Assembly: GCA_034521515.1 (NCBI GenBank)
Contig: JAXHMH010000002.1
Span: forward strand, 216,379-280,378
Direction of reading: 5' to 3'
Length of the DNA: 64,000 nt
Source: Candidatus Saccharimonadota bacterium
Lineage (GTDB): Bacteria; Patescibacteriota; Saccharimonadia; Saccharimonadales; JAXHMH01
Of this stretch, positions 231-16,165 are shown in pieces (within the stretch, counting starts at the first letter, position 1; each line of letters begins with the position of its first letter). Under the pieces are notes generated by a model, which did no database searches, was not told the origin of the DNA, and was given only the letters and a program-made list of their open reading frames with translations. A program made the translations under genes and the position numbers.

Positions 231-359
231 TTTTTTGGAGCCATGTCGTATGACGTGGCCAAAAAAACGGATCACCCTATCATGCGATAGGGCATGAACT
301 CTCCATAAAAAGAGCGAAGCGAATTTTTATGGAGCCCTGTCGAATGACAGGGCAAAAAA
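231..359 (-). promoter_or_regulatory. Structured 16S leader: two related extended hairpins (231-267, 324-359) plus a third (275-292)
   Basis: TTTTTTGGAGCCATGTC-gtat-GACGTGGCCAAAAAAA and TTTTTATGGAGCCCTGTC-gaat-GACAGGGCAAAAAA differ by compensatory changes in the stem. CCCTATC-atgc-GATAGGG lies between them. Confidence 0.45.
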
Positions 360-5505: not shown

Positions 5506-7131
5506 ATGTTTAAAAAACTGCTCAGCAACCTACCTTTTAATCCTAGCCTCATCGGTCAAGTATCTTTCTATGCCAAGCGACTACGCTCTGAAGAAAAATT
5601 ACGCCGCGTAGGTATTAGTCTTGTCGCATTATCGGTAGTCATACAAATGTTTGCGGTCTTTATTCCGCCAGAACCAACCCTTGCTCAATCTGGCAACGAT
5701 ATCATTCGTGGCGGATTCAGCAACACCCATGAAGCAACGCTAATGTGTCTTGATTCGACTCGAGATTTCGGGGCGATATTAAATCATTTTGGTTTTAACT
5801 GTAATCATATAGGAAATGCCCAAACAGTGTCACTGAAATCTACCTCAGTAATAGATGGAAAAGAATTGTACTCAATGGGTCGACATGCCAGAGGCCCAAT
5901 TGGACGTAGTAATAAAAACACTGATGAGCGTTCGGTTCGCATCAACAACGACACTTTCTATATAAGGCGCTTGGCCTCACTCGATACCTGGGCATCCTCA
6001 ACCTACCCCGCACTTAGACTACAAAACAGCCAGGGTAAGGTTATGTACATAATTAAGGATTGTGGTAATCCGGTATTAATAGGAGTCCCGCCTCCGCCTC
6101 CTGAGGTTGTCGACAAAGGAGTTTGCGAAGTTACTTCATACCCTGCTTCTGTTAAAAGAGGCGAGCGTTTTAGTGCAACTGTACGGGTTAGTAATAGCGG
6201 GGATACAACGTGGGATCCTGAGGAAAACTATAGACTCGGCTCACAGAACCCTCAAGACAACTGGAACTGGGGAACCAACCGAATAGATTTACCAAGACGC
6301 GTTAGTCCAGGGTCGAGTCTTGATATTACCGAGTCGTTCACTGCACCAAGTTCGGCCGGCACTCATCAATTTTCATGGAAAATGATTCAGGAAGGTGTGC
6401 GCTGGTTTGGTGAGTCCTGCTCAAAGCCAATTGTCGTAACCGCACCCGAGCCGGAACCGGAGGAACCAGACGAGCCAGAACTAACTCAAGAGCCGGAGCC
6501 AAAAGACGTATGTCCAGAGCTACCTGACGCTCAAGATGATATCGCTAGTTGCCTCGAACTTGGAAAAACTGCCAGTAATATTACCCAAAACGTCGCAGAC
6601 GCTAACAACACAACTGCCGCTGCTGGCGATGTAATTGAATATACCTTGCTCGTCACCAACGAGAGCACCAAAACTCTAAGCGACTTTGTTTTTGAAGAAC
6701 CCCTTCATGATGTTCTAGAGTATGCCGATATTATTAAACAAGGTGACGCGGAGTTCGACGAGAACTACCAGACACTACGCTGGCCAGAAGCCGACATCGA
6801 ACCGGGTGCAACCGAAGAAAAAGTCTTTCGTGTACGCATAAAGGATCCTATCCCTCAAACTCCAGTTTCTGTGTCCGACCCAAACTCCTATGATCTAGTT
6901 ATGACGAACGTATTCCACGGTGTAACGATTAATATCCGTCTCCCTGGAGGGGTAGTAAAAACCACTGAACAGGTTGCAACAACGCTGCCAAATACCGGCC
7001 CTGGTACAAATCTAGCTGTAGCTTTCGGTATAACTGTTATCGTCTCTTACTTTTTTGCCCGCACTAGACTGATGTCTAAAGAGGTAGCCATAGTACGAAC
7101 TGACTATGCAAGCAGTGGGAGTGCATCATGA
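5506..7131 (+). CDS. Sortase-anchored (LPXTG-type) cell-surface protein with an NBR1-like Ig domain and a DUF11-like repeat
   Basis: N-terminal TM/signal anchor. C-terminal LPNTGPG + hydrophobic stretch + RTR. Middle region: VSNSGDTTW...THQFSWKMIQEGVRWFGE (NBR1-like Ig), PEPEPEEPDEPE linker, AGDVIEYTLLVTNES (DUF11-like). Confidence 0.75.
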   Translation: MFKKLLSNLPFNPSLIGQVSFYAKRLRSEEKLRRVGISLVALSVVIQMFAVFIPPEPTLAQSGNDIIRGGFSNTHEATLMCLDSTRDFGAILNHFGFNCNHIGNAQTVSLKSTSVIDGKELYSMGRHARGPIGRSNKNTDERSVRINNDTFYIRRLASLDTWASSTYPALRLQNSQGKVMYIIKDCGNPVLIGVPPPPPEVVDKGVCEVTSYPASVKRGERFSATVRVSNSGDTTWDPEENYRLGSQNPQDNWNWGTNRIDLPRRVSPGSSLDITESFTAPSSAGTHQFSWKMIQEGVRWFGESCSKPIVVTAPEPEPEEPDEPELTQEPEPKDVCPELPDAQDDIASCLELGKTASNITQNVADANNTTAAAGDVIEYTLLVTNESTKTLSDFVFEEPLHDVLEYADIIKQGDAEFDENYQTLRWPEADIEPGATEEKVFRVRIKDPIPQTPVSVSDPNSYDLVMTNVFHGVTINIRLPGGVVKTTEQVATTLPNTGPGTNLAVAFGITVIVSYFFARTRLMSKEVAIVRTDYASSGSAS

Positions 7132-7690: not shown

Positions 7691-10600
7691 CTAAGCCTCG
7701 TCCTGATTATGAAAGTTGCCTTCCTTATCTATATATATCGTGCTGTCGTGATCGTGTTGCGCAGAATCGCCTGATAGCTTAATTTCACCACCGTCTTTTT
7801 TTGGAGTAGACTCGTCTTTTATGGAGCTTCTGATTTCGTTAGCAATTGTAGAGACTTCCTGTTTTTCAATCTCATCACTTGAAATGTTCTGAGTCGAAGT
7901 ATCTGCAGCTTGCGGTTGGGGTTTTGGCTTAGCAGGTTTTGGCTGTGCTTGCGCTGGTGACTGCTGAGGCTGTTGTTGGGACGATTCCTTAGACATAGGT
8001 AGACTACTTTTTGCCGGCTGTATCTTCGGCGGAGAAGTGGTTTGTGTCGGTGCTGGTGTTGATGCGTTAGGTTTATTAGCACCCTGAGAAGCACCTGCCG
8101 GCGTTGCCGCTTTACGTTTTGCCAACCACTCATCCAGGAAAGAAGATCCCGATGCTGGCGGTTTCTGTGGTGTCGGACGACGTGGTTTTTGACCGAATGG
8201 CGACTGAGCAGCTGGCTGTCTTCCAGGTTGAGAACCAAACGCCGGCTTAGGCTCTTCTGTTGTGGCAAGTCGCTTAAATATCTCTTCTTCGGCCTTGGCT
8301 TTAGGTTTGCCATACTTAGCAGAAGACAGTTGTTTTAAGGCTTCTCCTAGCTGTGGGTTTGGCTTCCCCAGTGGTGGCAAAGTTGCCATACTAAACGGAT
8401 GCGTTGGCACACCACCAACCAAAGTTCGGATTATGGTGTTGAAGTTCGGAACCCGTAATAGATCCTCCGCATCAAATGCCGGCTGGAAATACTTAGAGAG
8501 CAAATCGACGTCATTTTGTCCAACTCGGAACGAAACAATTGTACCCATGTTCCCAAAAACGGCGTCCCTGATTTCCTCGCTTAACTGAGTCGTGAACTGG
8601 TTCGCAACTACTAGGTTAAGGTGGTACTTTCTGGCTTCTGACATGATTGTGGCAAATGAATCAGTCGAAAAATTCTGGAACTCATCAACATATAAACAAA
8701 AGTCCTTTCGGTCGGCTTCCGGTATATTTGCTCGACTCATAGCTGCCGCTTGGAATTTCATAACAAACACCATCCCAAGCAATTTGGAGTTTAGCTCGCC
8801 AGTCCTACCTTTGGTAAGGTTAACGATTAGGATTTTTTTGTTATCCATAATTTCACGCAAGTCAAACGCACTTTTGGTTTGGCCAATAATGTTACGCATC
8901 ATTTCATTACTTAAAAACGCACTAAACTTACTCACAAACCATCCCAGAATTTCGCTTTTATGATAATCACTGGTTTGAGCCATTTCTTTATTCCAAAAAT
9001 CTAGCACAGTTTTATCTTTTACATGCTTGAGTTTTTGTTTGACGTACTGATTATCGGTAAATACTTTTGGTATATCAATAAAGGTGGAGCCGTCAGGATC
9101 ACTCATAAGCGTCAGCGACGCATTACGAAACCAGTGTTCATAACGCGGCCCAATAATACCCTGGTGCAATGGATCATATAGCTTGTACAGCATGTTGATA
9201 GCCTCCTGGATAAGAAAGTCTTTTTGCTCCGGAGTATTAAATTCATACAGATTAAGTCCCATCGGATAATCCATATCAGCTGGGCAAAAATATACGACGT
9301 CTTCAGTGCGCTCCTTCGGAACCATAGACAGTAACCTTTCAGCGGTATCACCGTGCGGATCAATAAACGCAAATCCTTCACCACTCAACATATCCTGGAA
9401 AGCTAAATTTTCCAGAAATGTAGACTTACCTGTTCCGGTCTGACCAACAACATACATATGCCTTTGACGATCATTGAGGGCAAGCCTTATGGCTTTTTTG
9501 ACACCCCTGAAAATATTGTAGCCAAGCAAGAAACCTTCATCCGATATATTACGCGGACCATCCACCTGTTTAGATGCTTGTCGCTGAAGTTGTGAGGTCG
9601 GAATATTCTTCTGATCCGGGAAATGAAATAAGGTAGCAAGTTCAACAGAGTTGAGGATGTTTTTATTACTCTCCTGCGGGAAAAACCTAAGAATATACGC
9701 GGTCACAAACCGTTCTATATCTTTAGCGGGCGTGTATTTAAAGCCGTTTTTACCTTGAGCATCAAACAGTGAAAAAGCAGCAACCACATTACTTAAAATT
9801 GACTGCGCCCTGTGAGACACATTAGAAGAAGCAACAACTCGTATCATTACCTCGTATCCGGGATAACGCGTCTTGTCATCTATTGAATCAAGCACGTTCT
9901 GATCTAAGCTAGAAAGATCTGGCTTATCCGAACCCTTTTCATCCCCTTTTTCGTCGGGTGGTTTAACGAACGCCATGAATAACTGTCGAAACCACCAAAA
10001 TACACCATCGGAGCCCTTCTTGTTATCTTTACCTTTGCGTTTCTTGCCAGAAACACCACTGGCTTGTTTACGCCAACCAGGATCCGCAGGTCGTAGCAGA
10101 ATTTGTATACCGGCACCATCATCTTTATCTAATGTTGATAGTGCATTCAGCAATGATTGCATTGCATCGCGTTTCAGATCTTGATAAGTAGCTATCGGAT
10201 ACGCAAAATGCTCTTTGAGCGTTAATTCACCACCTATAGTGCCAGTTATCTTGCCTACAGGACTAAAAATATTGTGTTCATCAACCTCCTCTAGCCTCGC
10301 AGACGGATACGCACTAACTACCGCTTGCTTAACAACATCTACCAACACAACCGGTACAGCTGCATAAAAATGCACAAAACCATGGCTCCCCACTATCTCA
10401 AAAGCAAGGTGTCGCTGACCATAAAATTTACTTTTTAGACCTTTTTGCAGCGTGCTTGCAATAATGTTGTAGAGTACTTGTGCTTTAGATATGTTCTCGT
10501 CCACAATATCGCGCACATCACGACCACCAGAGTCTTCATCGTCACTTTGAGGAGGCAACTGTATGAGCAGAGGAACCATCTTGAGCCCCCTCTCAAAGTT

Positions 10601-10702
10601 CTTTTGCTCCCGAAACGTCTTTCGTACCTGCCAATATACAAACGGTGCTGCAAGCAGACCAAGAACAAATAACGTTACTAGTAGAAATATAAATGTTGTC
10701 AT
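7691..10702 (-). CDS. Membrane-anchored TraD/VirD4 (type IV coupling protein)-like P-loop ATPase with a long P/Q/K-rich C-terminal tail
   Basis: N-terminal TM, Walker A GQTGTGKST followed by FIDPHGD, Walker B LYVDEFQNF. About 230 aa of low-complexity tail. Confidence 0.7.
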   Translation of the reverse strand: MTTFIFLLVTLFVLGLLAAPFVYWQVRKTFREQKNFERGLKMVPLLIQLPPQSDDEDSGGRDVRDIVDENISKAQVLYNIIASTLQKGLKSKFYGQRHLAFEIVGSHGFVHFYAAVPVVLVDVVKQAVVSAYPSARLEEVDEHNIFSPVGKITGTIGGELTLKEHFAYPIATYQDLKRDAMQSLLNALSTLDKDDGAGIQILLRPADPGWRKQASGVSGKKRKGKDNKKGSDGVFWWFRQLFMAFVKPPDEKGDEKGSDKPDLSSLDQNVLDSIDDKTRYPGYEVMIRVVASSNVSHRAQSILSNVVAAFSLFDAQGKNGFKYTPAKDIERFVTAYILRFFPQESNKNILNSVELATLFHFPDQKNIPTSQLQRQASKQVDGPRNISDEGFLLGYNIFRGVKKAIRLALNDRQRHMYVVGQTGTGKSTFLENLAFQDMLSGEGFAFIDPHGDTAERLLSMVPKERTEDVVYFCPADMDYPMGLNLYEFNTPEQKDFLIQEAINMLYKLYDPLHQGIIGPRYEHWFRNASLTLMSDPDGSTFIDIPKVFTDNQYVKQKLKHVKDKTVLDFWNKEMAQTSDYHKSEILGWFVSKFSAFLSNEMMRNIIGQTKSAFDLREIMDNKKILIVNLTKGRTGELNSKLLGMVFVMKFQAAAMSRANIPEADRKDFCLYVDEFQNFSTDSFATIMSEARKYHLNLVVANQFTTQLSEEIRDAVFGNMGTIVSFRVGQNDVDLLSKYFQPAFDAEDLLRVPNFNTIIRTLVGGVPTHPFSMATLPPLGKPNPQLGEALKQLSSAKYGKPKAKAEEEIFKRLATTEEPKPAFGSQPGRQPAAQSPFGQKPRRPTPQKPPASGSSFLDEWLAKRKAATPAGASQGANKPNASTPAPTQTTSPPKIQPAKSSLPMSKESSQQQPQQSPAQAQPKPAKPKPQPQAADTSTQNISSDEIEKQEVSTIANEIRSSIKDESTPKKDGGEIKLSGDSAQHDHDSTIYIDKEGNFHNQDEA

Positions 10703-10705
10703 AGT

Positions 10706-11134
10706 TTAGTCGTCAACCGGTTTTATCTCTTTGTTGTAGCGCTTCTTTAAGTAATCTGCTCGCACTTGATTCATCTGTTGGTTCTGTTTATATGGATCGT
10801 CTTTGGTGTGTTCAACAATCTCTTTTGCTTTATGAACCCATTCTTTTTCTATTAAGTCCACATCGTCAGCTATAGGAGGGGTTGATGGATCTGGTTGGTC
10901 ATTGGCTGCGCTATTATCATTATCGCTAGCAGGATTTGTATGATCTGACGTGGGCTGAACCTGCGTGCCTTGTTGAGGCTGAGAAGATGGGGTTTGAGTA
11001 GAGGTAGTCTCAACTGATTGAGACATTTTTTGCTCATTAGGGGTATTAATCTGCTCAGCTGAACTGTCAAATTCCCCAGTTTGTGGCTTTGGTAACTCTG
11101 TTTGTGGGTATGATTCCCCTTGTTGCTCATTCAT
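10706..11134 (-). CDS. Hypothetical protein (low-complexity N-terminal half, conserved-looking C-terminal ~50 aa)
   Basis: 142-aa ORF co-oriented with and 3 nt upstream of the ATPase gene. No motif recognised. Confidence 0.5.
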   Translation of the reverse strand: MNEQQGESYPQTELPKPQTGEFDSSAEQINTPNEQKMSQSVETTSTQTPSSQPQQGTQVQPTSDHTNPASDNDNSAANDQPDPSTPPIADDVDLIEKEWVHKAKEIVEHTKDDPYKQNQQMNQVRADYLKKRYNKEIKPVDD

Positions 11135-11167
11135 CTCTGTAATTATAACAAAGGAATTGAAAGTTCG

Positions 11168-11515
11168 TTACGATAGAAGGTCTGTTTTTTTAAAATAAAA
11201 CGTTAAACCACCGAGTAACCCGAGTGTTATTAACAAATCTCTTACAGAAAGTTGTCCGATAGATTGCAAAATCAAAAGCAAAACCGGCAAAATTGCAGAC
11301 ACAATCGCCAGCCACCCCCTGAACTGGCGCGAAATATTTGGAAACCAGCGATATAAAATACTGCTAAATATCTGGTAGACGATGAAAAACACAAGCAAAA
11401 ACGGCAGTATGAGCAATGGTAGTGGCACGTTATTTGGGTTTGAAAGGGTAATTATACCAAGTAGCATCACTACAGATCCGCCGAAGATTACGACTCGAAA
11501 TTTAGAATTTCGCAT
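11168..11515 (-). CDS. Small integral membrane protein (about 4 TM)
   Basis: 115-aa hydrophobic ORF, first gene of the co-oriented 11515->7691 set. Confidence 0.55.
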   Translation of the reverse strand: MRNSKFRVVIFGGSVVMLLGIITLSNPNNVPLPLLILPFLLVFFIVYQIFSSILYRWFPNISRQFRGWLAIVSAILPVLLLILQSIGQLSVRDLLITLGLLGGLTFYFKKTDLLS

Positions 11516-11540
11516 ATAGAAATAGTGTAGCCCAAGTCGA

Positions 11541-11721
11541 ACAAATAAAATAGCACCAACGTATTGTTGGTGCCGGAAATAAGCGTGGAGCTAGGACGGT
11601 AAAACCGCTCGTTAAAAATACTATTTAGCGCTTACCGTCCGTAGCATGACTGACCGCTCCCATTACGAGAGCGATATCGGCATTGTAGCCGTAGGAATGT
11701 AAGTTTTTGTTTTAACCTACT
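11541..11721 (-). ncRNA. Candidate ~180-nt structured leader or small RNA (unassigned family)
   Basis: Minus-strand promoter TTGACT (11756-11751)-N17-TAGATT (11733-11728). Hairpins CGCTCTC-gtaat-GGGAGCG (11655-11673) and GGACGGTAA...TTACCGTCC (11594-11640). Intrinsic terminator GCACCAAC-loop-GTTGGTGC + UAUUUUAUUU (11573-11541), 26 nt before the ATG at 11515. Confidence 0.35.
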
Positions 11722-12522
11722 GCATCGAATCTACTATTTTATGTACAAAAAGTCAAGCATTATTAGTAGTTGTATTTACAACTATACAGATATAAACTTA
11801 GTTATTATATAAAAATTTATATAATAATATTGTTGTTGTAATTACGTTATATATGAATAGATTTTAGTTACTCTGATGAAGTAATATAATTTTAAAGTTA
11901 TTGAATTTATCATTACTTAGGCTGCACATATCAGCTTTTAAAAATACATTTAACAATGCACTGTAGCGTATACATTATTAGTAGTTTTGCCTGTCAAATT
12001 ACCCAAAGTATGGCAACGTATAGCAACCAAACCCTCGATCTGTTCCGGCCTATTTAGGTCTCTTGCCTAGAATTAAGAAGTTATTGTTATGAGCACATTG
12101 CAGCTAAACTCGACTGTACCGCCCGTAATAAAACGTATTAATTAACAAACTAGCAACCTTAGAACCATAAATACCCTACAGTACCGTAATTTCCGTACCC
12201 TATATTAATAGCTAAACACGCAAAACCTAGCATATATAAAAAGCCCCAACGATAGTCGCCATTACGTATTAAAGCCGTGGGACGTTATGCGGGAACCGAT
12301 AACCTATCGTAGACAACCTCGATAGCGCAAAACGGTAATTTAAATCTATTATATTACTTAATTTAATCTGCCTTTGAACTGACCTGCCATAACGATTCGT
12401 CTTGCCCTATTTATATTTAGATTGAGCCCTAATGACCAATCAAAATAGGTCAAATACATCTTATTTTTTAATCATCGACGACGGGAAGTTATACACAAGC
12501 TAAAAAATAAACCGTAAACGTG

Positions 12523-12551
12523 TTGACAGGCTCGTTTATGGTGGCTAATAT
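12523..12551 (+). promoter_or_regulatory. Near-consensus sigma70-type promoter
   Basis: TTGACA (12523-28), 17-nt spacer, TAATAT (12546-51). Confidence 0.5.
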
Positions 12552-12557
12552 AAGGTC

Positions 12558-12709
12558 AGCACTTGAATAAAAAAAGTGCTCAAAAACAAAAACGCAATCT
12601 GTAACAACGGCTTCTCGCAAGCCGTTGTTCAATATAAAACCAAGACCACCCACAAAAAACTTAAAACCAAAAACATAAAGCAGTCCCGGTTTAACGGGAC
12701 TGCTTTTTT
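12558..12709 (+). ncRNA. Candidate ~150-nt small RNA or comM leader (unassigned family)
   Basis: Starts after the 12523 promoter. Hairpins AGCACT...AGTGCT and AACAACGGCTT-ctcgc-AAGCCGTTGTT, long A/C-rich single-stranded runs, and terminator GCAGTCCCG-gttta-CGGGACTGC + TTTTTT (12679-12709). Confidence 0.4.
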
Positions 12710-12743
12710 GTATATAATAGAATTAAGTAAACGAGGTGGGTGT

Positions 12744-14258
12744 ATGAGCGCAACGGTTCAAAGCATTGCGATAGCGGGTGACGATTGTCCGGTTATTGAT
12801 GTTGAGTGCAATATGTCTAATGGCTTGCCCAATTTGCTTATCGTCGGGTTTGCCAACAAGGCAGTTGAAGAAGCCCGTGAACGTGTCCGCAGCGCTTTTA
12901 GTAACTCTGACTTGGACATGCCAAAAAAACGAATAATTATCAATCTCGCGCCCGCCGATCTACCAAAAGAAAGCCCCAGCTTTGACGCAGCAATCGCCAC
13001 CTCAATTTTACTGGCAAGTGGTCAAGTCAAGCAGCGACCTCCACAAAAGACACTTATTATGGGTGAGCTGGGTCTGGATGGAAGCATACGTCCGGTGCGT
13101 GGAATTATTGGCGCTATAATAAGCGGGAAGAAAAAAGGCTTCACCACTTTTTATATACCAAAAAAGAACCAACGGCAGGCCGCACTCATACCTGACATCA
13201 CTGTTATCCCTGTTAACAGCCTCCGCGAAATATATCTCGATCTTACAAAAACCGTCCAGATTAGCCCTCTTATCCCGAAAGATTCGCACTATATCCATAA
13301 ACAACAGGAGAGCGCGACTGATTTTTGCCACGTTGTGGGACAAGCCCGAGCAAAGCGCGCTCTAGAGATTGCTGCAGCCGGCGCACATAACATCCTTCTT
13401 AATGGCCCTCCCGGCACCGGTAAGAGTATGCTTGCCAAAGCAATTCCTAGCATTCTTGCCCCCTTAGAGCTTGACGAAATTTTAGAAATCACTCATTTAC
13501 ATAGTCTTGCAACCAAACAGTTCGATAAAATACTTACCAACCGCCCCTTCCGATCACCTCATCATAGTGCCAGCGAAATAGCCATTATTGGCGGCGGTCA
13601 GAAGCCACGGCCAGGCGAAATTAGCCTCAGCCACCGAGGTGTGCTGTTTTTTGATGAATTTCCAGAGTTTGATCGCAATGTTATTGAAGCTTTGCGTCAA
13701 CCATTAGAAGACAAAACAATAACTGTGACTCGAGCTAAGGACAGCTTTACATTCCCGGCAGATTTTATACTCGTTGCTACTGCCAACCCTTGTCCTTGCG
13801 GCTATTACGGCACCGATAAAACTTGTAGCTGCATGCCTTCCCAAATTGTAAAATACCAGCGAAAACTCTCAGGGCCTATCATAGACAGAATCGACATGCA
13901 TATAGATGTTGAGGAGGTGCAACACGAACATCTACTCAAAGATGGACGAGAAGAAAACAGCCAAACTATTAGGCAACGTGTCATAAAAGCTCGTAGCGCG
14001 CAACAAAAACGATTCTCTAACCCATCTAAAACCAACTCAACCCTTACAAATCAGGAAATTAAGCGTCACGCTCAACTTGACACTACGGCAGAAAAGCTAC
14101 TAAATGACGCCGCCAAGCGACTAGATATATCACCTAGAAGCTATATGAGGCTTATAAAAGTGGCTCGAACCATTGCCGACCTTGACGATAGCAACAACGT
14201 AACCGTACCGCATATTAGCGAAGCCTTACAATATAGACGACAAACTACTCAATTATAG
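12744..14258 (+). CDS. comM: Mg-chelatase-like AAA+ ATPase, YifB/ComM family (start trimmed to ATG 12744)
   Basis: Lon-like N-terminal domain, Walker A GPPGTGKSM, ATANPCPCGYYG, C-terminal ChlI-type domain. GAGGTGG SD lies before ATG 12744. The track's upstream extension covers the candidate sRNA and its terminator. Confidence 0.85.
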   Translation: MSATVQSIAIAGDDCPVIDVECNMSNGLPNLLIVGFANKAVEEARERVRSAFSNSDLDMPKKRIIINLAPADLPKESPSFDAAIATSILLASGQVKQRPPQKTLIMGELGLDGSIRPVRGIIGAIISGKKKGFTTFYIPKKNQRQAALIPDITVIPVNSLREIYLDLTKTVQISPLIPKDSHYIHKQQESATDFCHVVGQARAKRALEIAAAGAHNILLNGPPGTGKSMLAKAIPSILAPLELDEILEITHLHSLATKQFDKILTNRPFRSPHHSASEIAIIGGGQKPRPGEISLSHRGVLFFDEFPEFDRNVIEALRQPLEDKTITVTRAKDSFTFPADFILVATANPCPCGYYGTDKTCSCMPSQIVKYQRKLSGPIIDRIDMHIDVEEVQHEHLLKDGREENSQTIRQRVIKARSAQQKRFSNPSKTNSTLTNQEIKRHAQLDTTAEKLLNDAAKRLDISPRSYMRLIKVARTIADLDDSNNVTVPHISEALQYRRQTTQL

Positions 14259-15548: not shown

Positions 15549-15649
15549 GTCAGCCCAGTAGTAGACTTTTGAGTTAGCGCGCTTTCGATGCAAACCTATT
15601 AGATTTCAGTTTTGCTGAAATCCTTCTCAAAAGCTCACTACTGGGTCAG
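15549..15649 (-). mobile_element. ~100-nt terminal-inverted-repeat hairpin element, copy 1 (MITE-like)
   Basis: GTCAG-CCCAGTAGTAGA...GCTCACTACTGGG-TCAG. The same termini are seen at 55974-56069. Flanked by TCAG/TCAG. Confidence 0.5.
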
Positions 15650-15675
15650 ATTATCTATAAGCCGGGTTCTGTTCA

Positions 15676-15742
15676 CCCCGCACCTTTTCGTGGCGACTTA
15701 TCAATCTGGTTGCAGACTGTTTCGCCCAGAAAAGGTGCGGGG
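15676..15742 (-). repeat. 66-67-nt hairpin module inside rnpB (P18 position)
   Basis: CCCCGCACC...CAGTCTG-CAAC-CAGATTG...GGTGCGGGG. Near-identical to 15915-15980. Confidence 0.75.
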
Positions 15743-15914
15743 GAGCCAATCATCTATCTAGCTCTAGGATTGTTCCTAGAATCGAGCGGATCTTATGATG
15801 CATCTTCGGCGGGGAACCGTATGAAGACACACCTCCTTGCAGCAGACAGGGTTTACCATTTTCCATCGTCACCGACAGGAACTGTGGGCTCTTACCCCAC
15901 TCGTTTCACCTTTA

Positions 15915-15980
15915 CCCCGCACCACTTCAAGGTGCTAAACAATCTGGTTGCAAACTGTATCGCCCTGAAGTGGTGCGGGG
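15915..15980 (-). repeat. 66-nt hairpin module inside rnpB (P8/P9 position)
   Basis: CCCCGCACC...CAGTTTG-CAAC-CAGATTG...GGTGCGGGG. Paralogue of 15676-15742. Confidence 0.75.
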
Positions 15981-16165
15981 TAGTTTCGTTTCTGTGGCAC
16001 TTTCCCTAGGGTTGCCCCCGGTCGCCGTTAGCGACTGTCTTCCCCTTCGCTGCCCGGACTTTCCTCCCCCTCACCAGCTTTCAGGAGAACAAGCCTTGGC
16101 TTGCTTCTGCCTGGAAAGTGGTGAGGGGGCGATCGGCCGATAGTCTGACCTTTTTATTATATCAT

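Follow-up and report, generated by a model that had tools for sequence, protein, structure and literature searches.

A conserved structured leader RNA in front of a VirD4/TraD-type ATPase operon in Saccharibacteria

The operon and its leader

The stretch analysed here, hereafter the window, comprises 64,000 nucleotides (nt) of a Candidatus Saccharimonadota genome (contig JAXHMH010000002.1, positions 216,379 to 280,378), and its minus strand carries a three-gene operon of ~4.4 kilobases (kb) preceded by a structured leader RNA, the subject of this report. Gene 1 (11168–11515, with its ATG at 11515) encodes a predicted membrane protein of 115 amino acids (aa), without family assignment and identical to a protein in a Candidatus Saccharibacteria metagenome-assembled genome. 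Gene 2 (10706–11134) encodes a protein of 142 aa whose N-terminal part is disordered and whose C-terminal part contains a conserved two-helix hairpin (residues 91–133); in its structure model, the predicted local distance difference test score (pLDDT) is 87–95 for residues 91–140 and low elsewhere. Gene 3 (7691–10702) encodes a 1,003-aa membrane ATPase of the VirD4/TraD coupling-protein type, containing DUF8128, a HerA-like P-loop and TraG-D_C. An earlier note on this DNA, made from the sequence alone, had described the same set of a 115-aa reading frame followed by those of 142 and 1,003 aa, and had proposed a promoter, a row of hairpins and a terminator in front of it.

The leader lies on the operon strand, its elements reading 5′ to 3′ from 11760 to 11513. 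The proposed promoter is found at 11756–11728, with a −35 element TTGACT (11756–11751), a 17-nt spacer and a −10 element TAGATT (11733–11728), matching at 9 of 12 positions, and the transcript is predicted to start at approximately 11722–11720. The 5′ end of the RNA folds into hairpin P1 (11720–11699), in which GUAGGUU (11720–11714) pairs with AACUUAC (11705–11699), the consensus being GUAAGU/ACUUAC. The note had drawn this hairpin as GUAGG with CCUAC; the GUAGG side stands and its partner is a different one, as GUAGGU(U) pairs with (A)ACUUAC and CCUAC is specific to the window. The loop of P1 holds a conserved A-rich motif, AAAACAAAAAC (11713–11703). In the minimum-energy fold, a putative small hairpin P2 follows (GGCU-ACAAUG-CCG, 11690–11678), which the note had not listed and whose region differs in length and sequence between species in the alignment.

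Hairpin P3 is the stem-loop CGCUCUC-GUAAU-GGGAGCG of the note, located at 11673–11655, and its closing stem CGCUC/GAGCG is almost invariant. A single-stranded junction, GUCAGUCA(U), leads from P3 to the long stem (11654–11646, with GUCAGUCA itself at 11654–11647), and its alignment columns are invariant. The long, interrupted helix (11645–11590) is built from three parts: an outer P4a of 4 base pairs (bp), GCUA/UAGC (11645–11642 with 11593–11590), which is an addition to the earlier list; the 9-bp stem P4b, GGACGGUAA/UUACCGUCC (11640–11632 with 11602–11594), which had been recognised as enclosing a smaller hairpin; and the inner P5, CGCU/AGCG (11630–11627 with 11609–11606), capped by a 17-nt A/U-rich loop with a conserved AUAGU. 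The intrinsic terminator (11574–11540) consists of the hairpin GGCACCAAC-AAUAC-GUUGGUGCU (11574–11552; −13.6 kcal/mol) and the U-tract AUUUUAUUUGUU (11551–11540), a tail also recorded as AUUUUAUUUG, and it ends, as had been claimed, 26 nt before the start codon of the 115-aa gene.

The 215-nt stretch folds at −70 kcal/mol, compared with −47.6 ± 4.1 kcal/mol for 200 dinucleotide shuffles (z = −5.4), none of which was as good. The promoter match by itself is not above chance, with six promoter-like sites against 7.1 expected in this AT-rich region. Among the instances compared across species, the distance from the transcript start to the end of the long helix has a median of 148 nt (range 125–260 nt).

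Conservation and covariation of the leader

The note had suggested comparing the regions upstream of orthologous operons. This comparison finds the structure conserved, with covariation. It was made on 80 loci from species-representative genomes, chosen through an alignment of ATPase homologues, in which the order of the 115-, 140- and 1,000-aa genes is conserved. A sequence profile of the window's leader matches 61 of the 80 loci, always on the operon strand and 850–1,100 nt before the ATPase gene. A covariance model built on the 3′ domain of the leader (P3, junction and P4/P5) finds exactly one copy in each of the 76 loci with upstream DNA, with forward scores of 45–107 bits and reverse-strand scores of at most 25 bits; in the other 4 loci the upstream DNA is too short to hold a leader. 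The window likewise contains a single copy by this model.

A gene-independent search gave the same picture. Metagenome contigs were scanned with a pattern of the invariant RNA core, for which 120 stretches were reported and 80 loci listed; among the matches listed, the covariance model accepts 34, the remainder being chance matches to the pattern. Every accepted metagenome instance with enough flanking sequence has the same genes downstream. Altogether, the ATPase gene lies downstream on the same strand in 89 of 89 instances, whereas ComM, the divergent upstream neighbour of the leader, is retained in only 69 of 84 (lost in 18% of lineages), and the operon encoding the 115-aa protein, the 142-aa protein and the coupling ATPase is the single gene context seen. 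The plasmids and phages searched contain no match to the leader, and an origin from mobile elements was rejected. Comparative sequence evidence indicates that the leader is a structured RNA conserved in more than 100 Saccharibacteria species.

Covariation accounts for most of the helices. From a plain MAFFT alignment, RNAalifold recovers the closing stem of P3 together with the long helix; of the 19 pairs, 10 show compensatory changes. When 100 instances are aligned to the model, 98.7% of the cells pair and 14 of the 19 pairs show double changes; the double-change cells number 163, compared with 46 ± 8 in shuffles (0 of 500 as high), and registers slid out of place pair at 31–47%. The long helix alone has compensatory changes at 11 of 14 pairs, in up to 44 of 100 sequences at one pair, and G–U pairs are frequent on the operon strand. 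P1, assessed in a separate alignment, is 91% paired, with 10 double-change cells compared with 1.5 ± 1.2 in shuffles (0 of 500) and 23–37% pairing in slid registers. The outer helix reaches at least 4 bp in 90 of 100 loci with their own flanks, compared with 51% with the flanks of other loci, and the block GGCU(CC) is conserved because it forms this outer extension of the long helix. The structure, conserved with compensatory changes in ~100 further species, goes well beyond chance.

Superimposed on these covarying helices are parts that hardly change. The two sides of the P3 stem read CGCUC in 91 and GAGCGG in 92 of 100 instances, and the junction reads GUCAGUCA in 83 and the variant GUCAGUCU in 10, together 93 of 100. 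P3 (CGCUC...GAGCGG) and P5 (CGCU...GAGCGG) are look-alike invariant stems, and the top of the long helix (UAAG/UUUA) and the A-rich loop of P1 are also invariant, whereas the other helices covary freely and thus need only be helices. The interior of P3 is more plastic: most species have an extension hairpin inside it, often with the loop CUAAA, giving an interior of 19–23 nt in 87 of 100 instances, and the window represents the short form (8–10 nt in 10 of 100). A few species have an additional hairpin within the junction. Complementarity of the A-rich loop to the U-rich inner loop or to the terminator tail is not above that in shuffles. An exchange of strands between P1 (GUAAG/CUUAC) and the top of P4b (GUAAG/UUUAC) was rejected by eye, as CUUAC is unchanged where P4b has CAAG.

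The promoter and terminator are conserved as elements. The −35 sequence is an exact TTGACN in 96 of 99 instances and the A-rich loop always begins ~45 nt after it, a fixed distance that places the transcript start 1–4 nt before P1; a promoter scan detects the leader promoter in 77 of 99. A terminator-like end is found in 84 of 99 instances, compared with 9% of shuffled and 21% of coding-sequence controls, and takes two forms. A separate hairpin with a U-tract, starting 5–16 nt after the long helix and unrelated in sequence between species, is present in 56 instances, and 34 have a U-run immediately behind the long helix; 6 have both kinds and 15 have neither. The first ATG follows the terminator at a median distance of 22 nt in the separate-hairpin class and 39 nt in the U-run class. 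Between terminator and ATG, promoter-like sites occur in 11 of 98 loci, below the shuffled rate of 15.5%, and a separate operon promoter at this position was rejected, the interval offering neither the space nor a signal for one. The RNA is thus the 5′ leader of an operon that lacks its own promoter, and the operon can be transcribed only by polymerase that passes the terminator. The layout is that of an attenuator leader, with a promoter upstream, a terminator before the start codon and no other promoter found. As in a small RNA gene, the leader has its own promoter and terminator; transcriptionally, it is not separable from its neighbours.

The leader matches no known family. A scan of the whole window against Rfam 15 at gathering scores, of the kind proposed in the note, gave nothing in 11500–11760, and a scan of 11100–12700 at E ≤ 10 gave just two spurious matches outside the leader. 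These negative scans led us to reject fluoride (crcB), 6S, signal recognition particle and transfer-messenger RNAs, known leaders and ribozymes; the note had itself discounted its resemblance to the fluoride motif, and rightly so. Full-text literature searches found no description of such an RNA for Saccharibacteria or Patescibacteria, and a 2022 transcriptome paper reports no validated small RNAs in the Saccharibacteria/Patescibacteria group. The observation that started this analysis is confirmed as real, each element it named being found where it had been placed.

A second conserved RNA and the surrounding genes

Upstream of the leader, 12484–12720 is conserved in ~90 of 100 loci, including loci without ComM, and very likely contains a small RNA gene of ~155 nt, divergent from the leader (RNA at approximately 12557–12712, plus strand). 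Its promoter, TTGACA-17-TAATAT, lies at 12523–12551, and its strong terminator (12677–12706 plus a T-run) is not conserved in sequence between species. Across 30 species, the RNA has an invariant 5′ hairpin, AGCACUUGAA...AAGUGCU, an invariant single-stranded segment, CAAAAACAAAAAC, that holds the motif of the leader's P1 loop, an 11-bp hairpin, AACAACGGCUU/AAGCCGUUGUU, with a few compensatory changes, and then a variable A/C-rich tract. In the noncoding sequence of the window, the exact 11-mer AAAACAAAAAC occurs only in the leader and in this second RNA, which suggests that one partner binds both. For the second RNA, all Rfam families score far below threshold (best 33 bits against a cut-off of 229), and no signal of pairing between the two RNAs was found by a method that is crude for long RNAs.

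Just upstream of the promoter of the second RNA lies a conserved box, GTTATACACAGG (12487–12500), that holds a DnaA-box variant, TTATACACA (12489–12497). Lying between the promoters of the two divergent RNAs, the box may serve to bind a regulator. Across the window, DnaA-like boxes are not enriched (67 against 68.7 expected) and the GC skew has the same sign on both sides of the gap, so the gap is not a replication origin, and an origin or DnaA-box cluster was rejected.

The gap is bounded by ComM, whose true start is an internal Met at 12744, leaving ~1.2 kb free of genes. The mechanical 560-aa reading frame adds 56 codons to ComM (12576–12743) and crosses the second RNA and its terminator. 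The ATG at 12744 is preceded by GAGGUGGG, and a promoter-like TTAACG-16-TATAAT (12691–12718) overlaps the terminator of the second RNA. Between 11760 and 12480, ~700 nt without open reading frames are not conserved in other species, with 20–22% GC at 11700–12000. ComM and the leader lie 360–580 nt apart in some species and 700–1,750 nt apart in others, a bimodal distribution, and in the short-gap species the gap contains only the two RNAs.

Elsewhere in the window are gyrA, gyrB, the 5′ end of the 16S ribosomal RNA (rRNA), RNase P RNA, transfer RNAs, and the genes for IF3 and L20. The RNase P RNA (15642–16148, minus strand; class A, 235.9 bits) spans 507 nt compared with the 367 positions of its model and hence must contain sizeable insertions. 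Convergent with the ATPase operon, 5506–7131 on the plus strand encodes a protein of 541 aa that contains Ig-like (N_BRCA1_IG) and DUF11 domains. Its C terminus forms a cell-wall anchor of the sortase type, in which LPNTG is followed by hydrophobic and basic residues, and the protein is a candidate surface adhesin. The ATPase ends in a low-complexity tail of ~190 residues (approximately residues 815–1003; 7691–8250, minus strand), rich in P, Q, S, A and K, which follows the conserved motor domains and differs in length among species.

Control of the operon and comparison with known systems

How the terminator could be controlled was approached through pairings that would compete with it. In 36 loci with separate terminators, pairing of the terminator arms with upstream RNA scores −8.4 and −9.4 kcal/mol, compared with −8.15 and −8.8 kcal/mol when shuffled, and the best pairing sites are scattered along the upstream RNA. 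A classical antiterminator was rejected for this separate-hairpin class, as the arms pair like shuffled ones; this includes pairing of GGCUCCA with the 3′ arm. In the U-run class (34 loci), the long helix is itself the terminator, and mutually exclusive pairing may still occur there. The proposal of a ligand-sensing leader survives in part: a structured 5′ leader, conserved together with a promoter and a terminator of its own, is present, whereas ligand sensing itself is in part contradicted, as antiterminator pairing was not found, the gene context is a single one, and the hairpins stand in a row and include two near-identical invariant stems. A riboswitch suits these features no better than does an attenuator directed by a protein or by polymerase, or a small RNA. 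Put in terms of riboswitches, a covarying structured domain in the 5′ untranslated region (UTR) is found, and a competing expression platform and an association with metabolic or transport genes are not.

We favour the reading that the leader represents a new family of cis-acting leader RNA, a transcription attenuator of the operon, probably factor-dependent, and hold it with about as much belief as doubt. The lack of an antiterminator, the single gene context and the look-alike stems favour factor-dependent attenuation over a metabolite riboswitch or a stand-alone small RNA. The comparison across species shows a strong, conserved σ70-type promoter whose transcript begins 1–4 nt before P1 and whose first ~150 nt fold into P1, the variable region, P3, the GUCAGUCA junction and the P4a/P4b/P5 helix; an intrinsic terminator comes at once after this fold in ~85% of species, with the start codon ~20–40 nt further on. 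Expression of the operon would then need polymerase to read through the terminator, with the conserved RNA setting how often it does so. A metabolite working through a classical switch of aptamer and antiterminator would be the less probable effector, a macromolecule the more probable one. A candidate is an RNA-binding protein, possibly dimeric, that would recognise the two CGCU(C)...GAGCGG hairpins, the A-rich loop or both; an alternative candidate is RNA polymerase itself, as in processive antitermination. The invariant look-alike stems, single-stranded junction and A-rich loop have the appearance expected of repeated recognition sites for a protein or for polymerase. The terminated product of ~180 nt probably accumulates as a small RNA, because the promoter is of rRNA grade.

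Several observations weigh against this reading. The 142-aa protein shows neither an RNA-binding nor an antiterminator fold, the operon lacks a linked regulator gene and no effector was found; an RNA-binding regulator encoded in the operon was rejected, the 142-aa protein consisting of a disordered region and a two-helix hairpin, with a hint of YoeB far below cut-off. The A-rich loop has no pairing partner in the leader RNA, so that its proposed role is a guess. With 15 of 99 instances lacking a terminator, termination is perhaps not universal, or weak terminators were missed. The U-run class fits an OFF riboswitch or a plain small-RNA terminator equally well as, or better than, polymerase-directed antitermination, and read-through could simply be a constitutive leak.

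A possible, though doubtful, reading takes the leader as a new metabolite or ion riboswitch, in which the 3′ domain (P3, junction and P4/P5) would be the aptamer and the ligand would stabilise the long helix and so favour termination, directly where the U-run follows the helix and elsewhere through a coupling as yet unseen. Aptamer-like size and conservation, invariant junction and internal-loop nucleotides between covarying helices, a peripheral hairpin of variable length with optional inserts, the position in the 5′ UTR with a terminator immediately after, and the failure to match any known class all suit such an element, and the conserved helix doubling as terminator stem in 34 of 99 instances is a common riboswitch layout that keeps an OFF type alive there. 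However, the 56 instances with separate terminators offer no mutually exclusive pairing, the one gene context is neither metabolic nor transporter, the hairpins stand in tandem without a closing switch helix, the near-identical invariant P3 and P5 stems look more like repeated recognition sites, and the gene functions suggest no candidate ligand. We consider it unlikely that a new class of riboswitch, restricted to Saccharibacteria, has its sensor in the 3′ domain, with a small molecule, plausibly host-derived, timing the ATPase operon and the AAAACAAAAAC-bearing small RNA acting in the same circuit. Unlikely, too, is a stand-alone, trans-acting small RNA gene whose only link to the operon would be shared transcription, the operon being expressed by constitutive leak through the terminator. 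Such a gene would suit a promoter equal to that of the rRNA of the window (TTGACA-17-TAGGAT), a terminator of either kind that closes the conserved part and needs no switching logic (84 of 99 by count), the absence of an antiterminator, the clearly independent small RNA with the same A-rich motif next door and, in a passage of the 2022 transcriptome paper, the compact genomes of Saccharibacteria, where short gaps are expected. Against it stand the unbroken linkage of RNA and operon (89 of 89), in contrast to the other neighbour, which 18% of lineages have lost, the lack of a separate operon promoter, which means that the terminator of the leader necessarily sets operon expression, and the lack of any identified trans target.

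It is highly improbable that there is no RNA element at all and that this AT-rich intergenic region instead folds by chance or works at the level of DNA, for example as a replication origin or a set of protein-binding sites. The promoter match that alone is not above chance, the ~1.2-kb AT-rich gap between divergent genes (20% GC at 11700–12000) and its one perfect DnaA-box-like TTATACACA (12489–12497) could be read in this way, but the compensatory changes and G–U pairs are strand-specific, the model scores are strongly strand-asymmetric, DnaA-like boxes are as frequent as expected with the GC skew keeping its sign, and species with gaps of 360–580 nt have just the two RNAs there. This explanation is refuted as far as sequence analysis can go.

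With factor-dependent attenuation as the favoured reading, the leader most likely gates transcription of the operon, as far as can be judged from its sequence and position. Almost nothing is known of regulation in Saccharibacteria and other Patescibacteria, which live as ultrasmall epibionts. According to the literature, Saccharibacteria share a conserved type IV secretion system of unknown function that is essential in S. epibionticum; the VirD4-like coupling-protein homologue is encoded away from virB4, is not essential in S. epibionticum and may be exapted. The leader RNA, found in every species examined and more strongly constrained than the protein encoded after it, offers a handle on when and why the ATPase operon is switched on, and the genetic tractability of S. 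epibionticum makes the question experimentally addressable if that strain carries the motif. Together, the leader and the neighbouring small RNA are two new RNA families, none having been found described for this phylum-level lineage.

The leader shares with the terminator-type riboswitch and attenuator leaders of Gram-positive bacteria its promoter, a structured 5′ UTR of ~150 nt, a terminator and a nearby start codon, as well as covarying helices that flank invariant junction nucleotides. It differs from them in having no Rfam match, no detected antiterminator and one gene context, and, unlike riboswitch leaders, it is a row of hairpins as opposed to a junction closed by a switching helix. 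Small RNAs that share a transcript with the gene behind them, or that premature termination frees from 5′ UTRs, similarly combine a strong promoter, a terminated structured RNA and a gene reached by read-through; unlike for such small RNAs, the arrangement here does not vary among more than 100 species, and no further promoter serves the operon.

The boxA sites of rRNA operons and the nut sites of phage lambda are sites for Nus factors, and the invariant CGCUCU(U) of the leader matches the boxA core. A plausible boxA of the organism itself is CGCUCUUUUUAUGG (303–316, minus strand) in the rRNA leader, ~90 nt before the 16S 5′ end, which has 11 of 14 bases in common with CGCUCUCGUAAUGG of the leader. 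Unlike in boxA, only CGCUC is invariant family-wide, and it is paired with GAGCG, the following bases varying and covarying with their partner; the full boxA consensus GCUCUUUAACAA is neither matched nor enriched (85 matches against 79 expected). A boxA or Nus site was rejected, the resemblance covering 5–6 nt within a paired segment.

Polymerase-binding antitermination RNAs share some of this layout. The put elements of phage HK022 and the EAR element of Bacillus are promoter-proximal hairpin RNAs with terminators behind them; they do not act by pairing alternatively with the terminator, and they serve long operons with several terminators. The nearest functional analogy is conAn of pLS20, although homology is not evident. 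In Gram-positive conjugation operons such as that of pLS20, as described in passages of two papers (PMC8191782, PMC13401043), a long leader and control by termination and antitermination are found, and sequence-specific pairing to the bypassed terminators is not needed. As these passages have it, a type IV secretion-related operon there, as here, opens with a long structured leader and termination is a control point. The pLS20 operon they describe exceeds 32 kb and has a 456-nt leader and its own two-component antitermination system, whereas the operon here has three genes in ~4.4 kb and no recognisable antitermination protein, and its terminator lies within the conserved RNA in a third of species. 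What put, EAR and conAn have in common with the leader is a promoter-proximal structured RNA that stands before terminators and need not pair with them, a resemblance in layout only. The general kind of element, a promoter, a structured leader, a terminator and an operon in sequence, is well known; the leader family is new.

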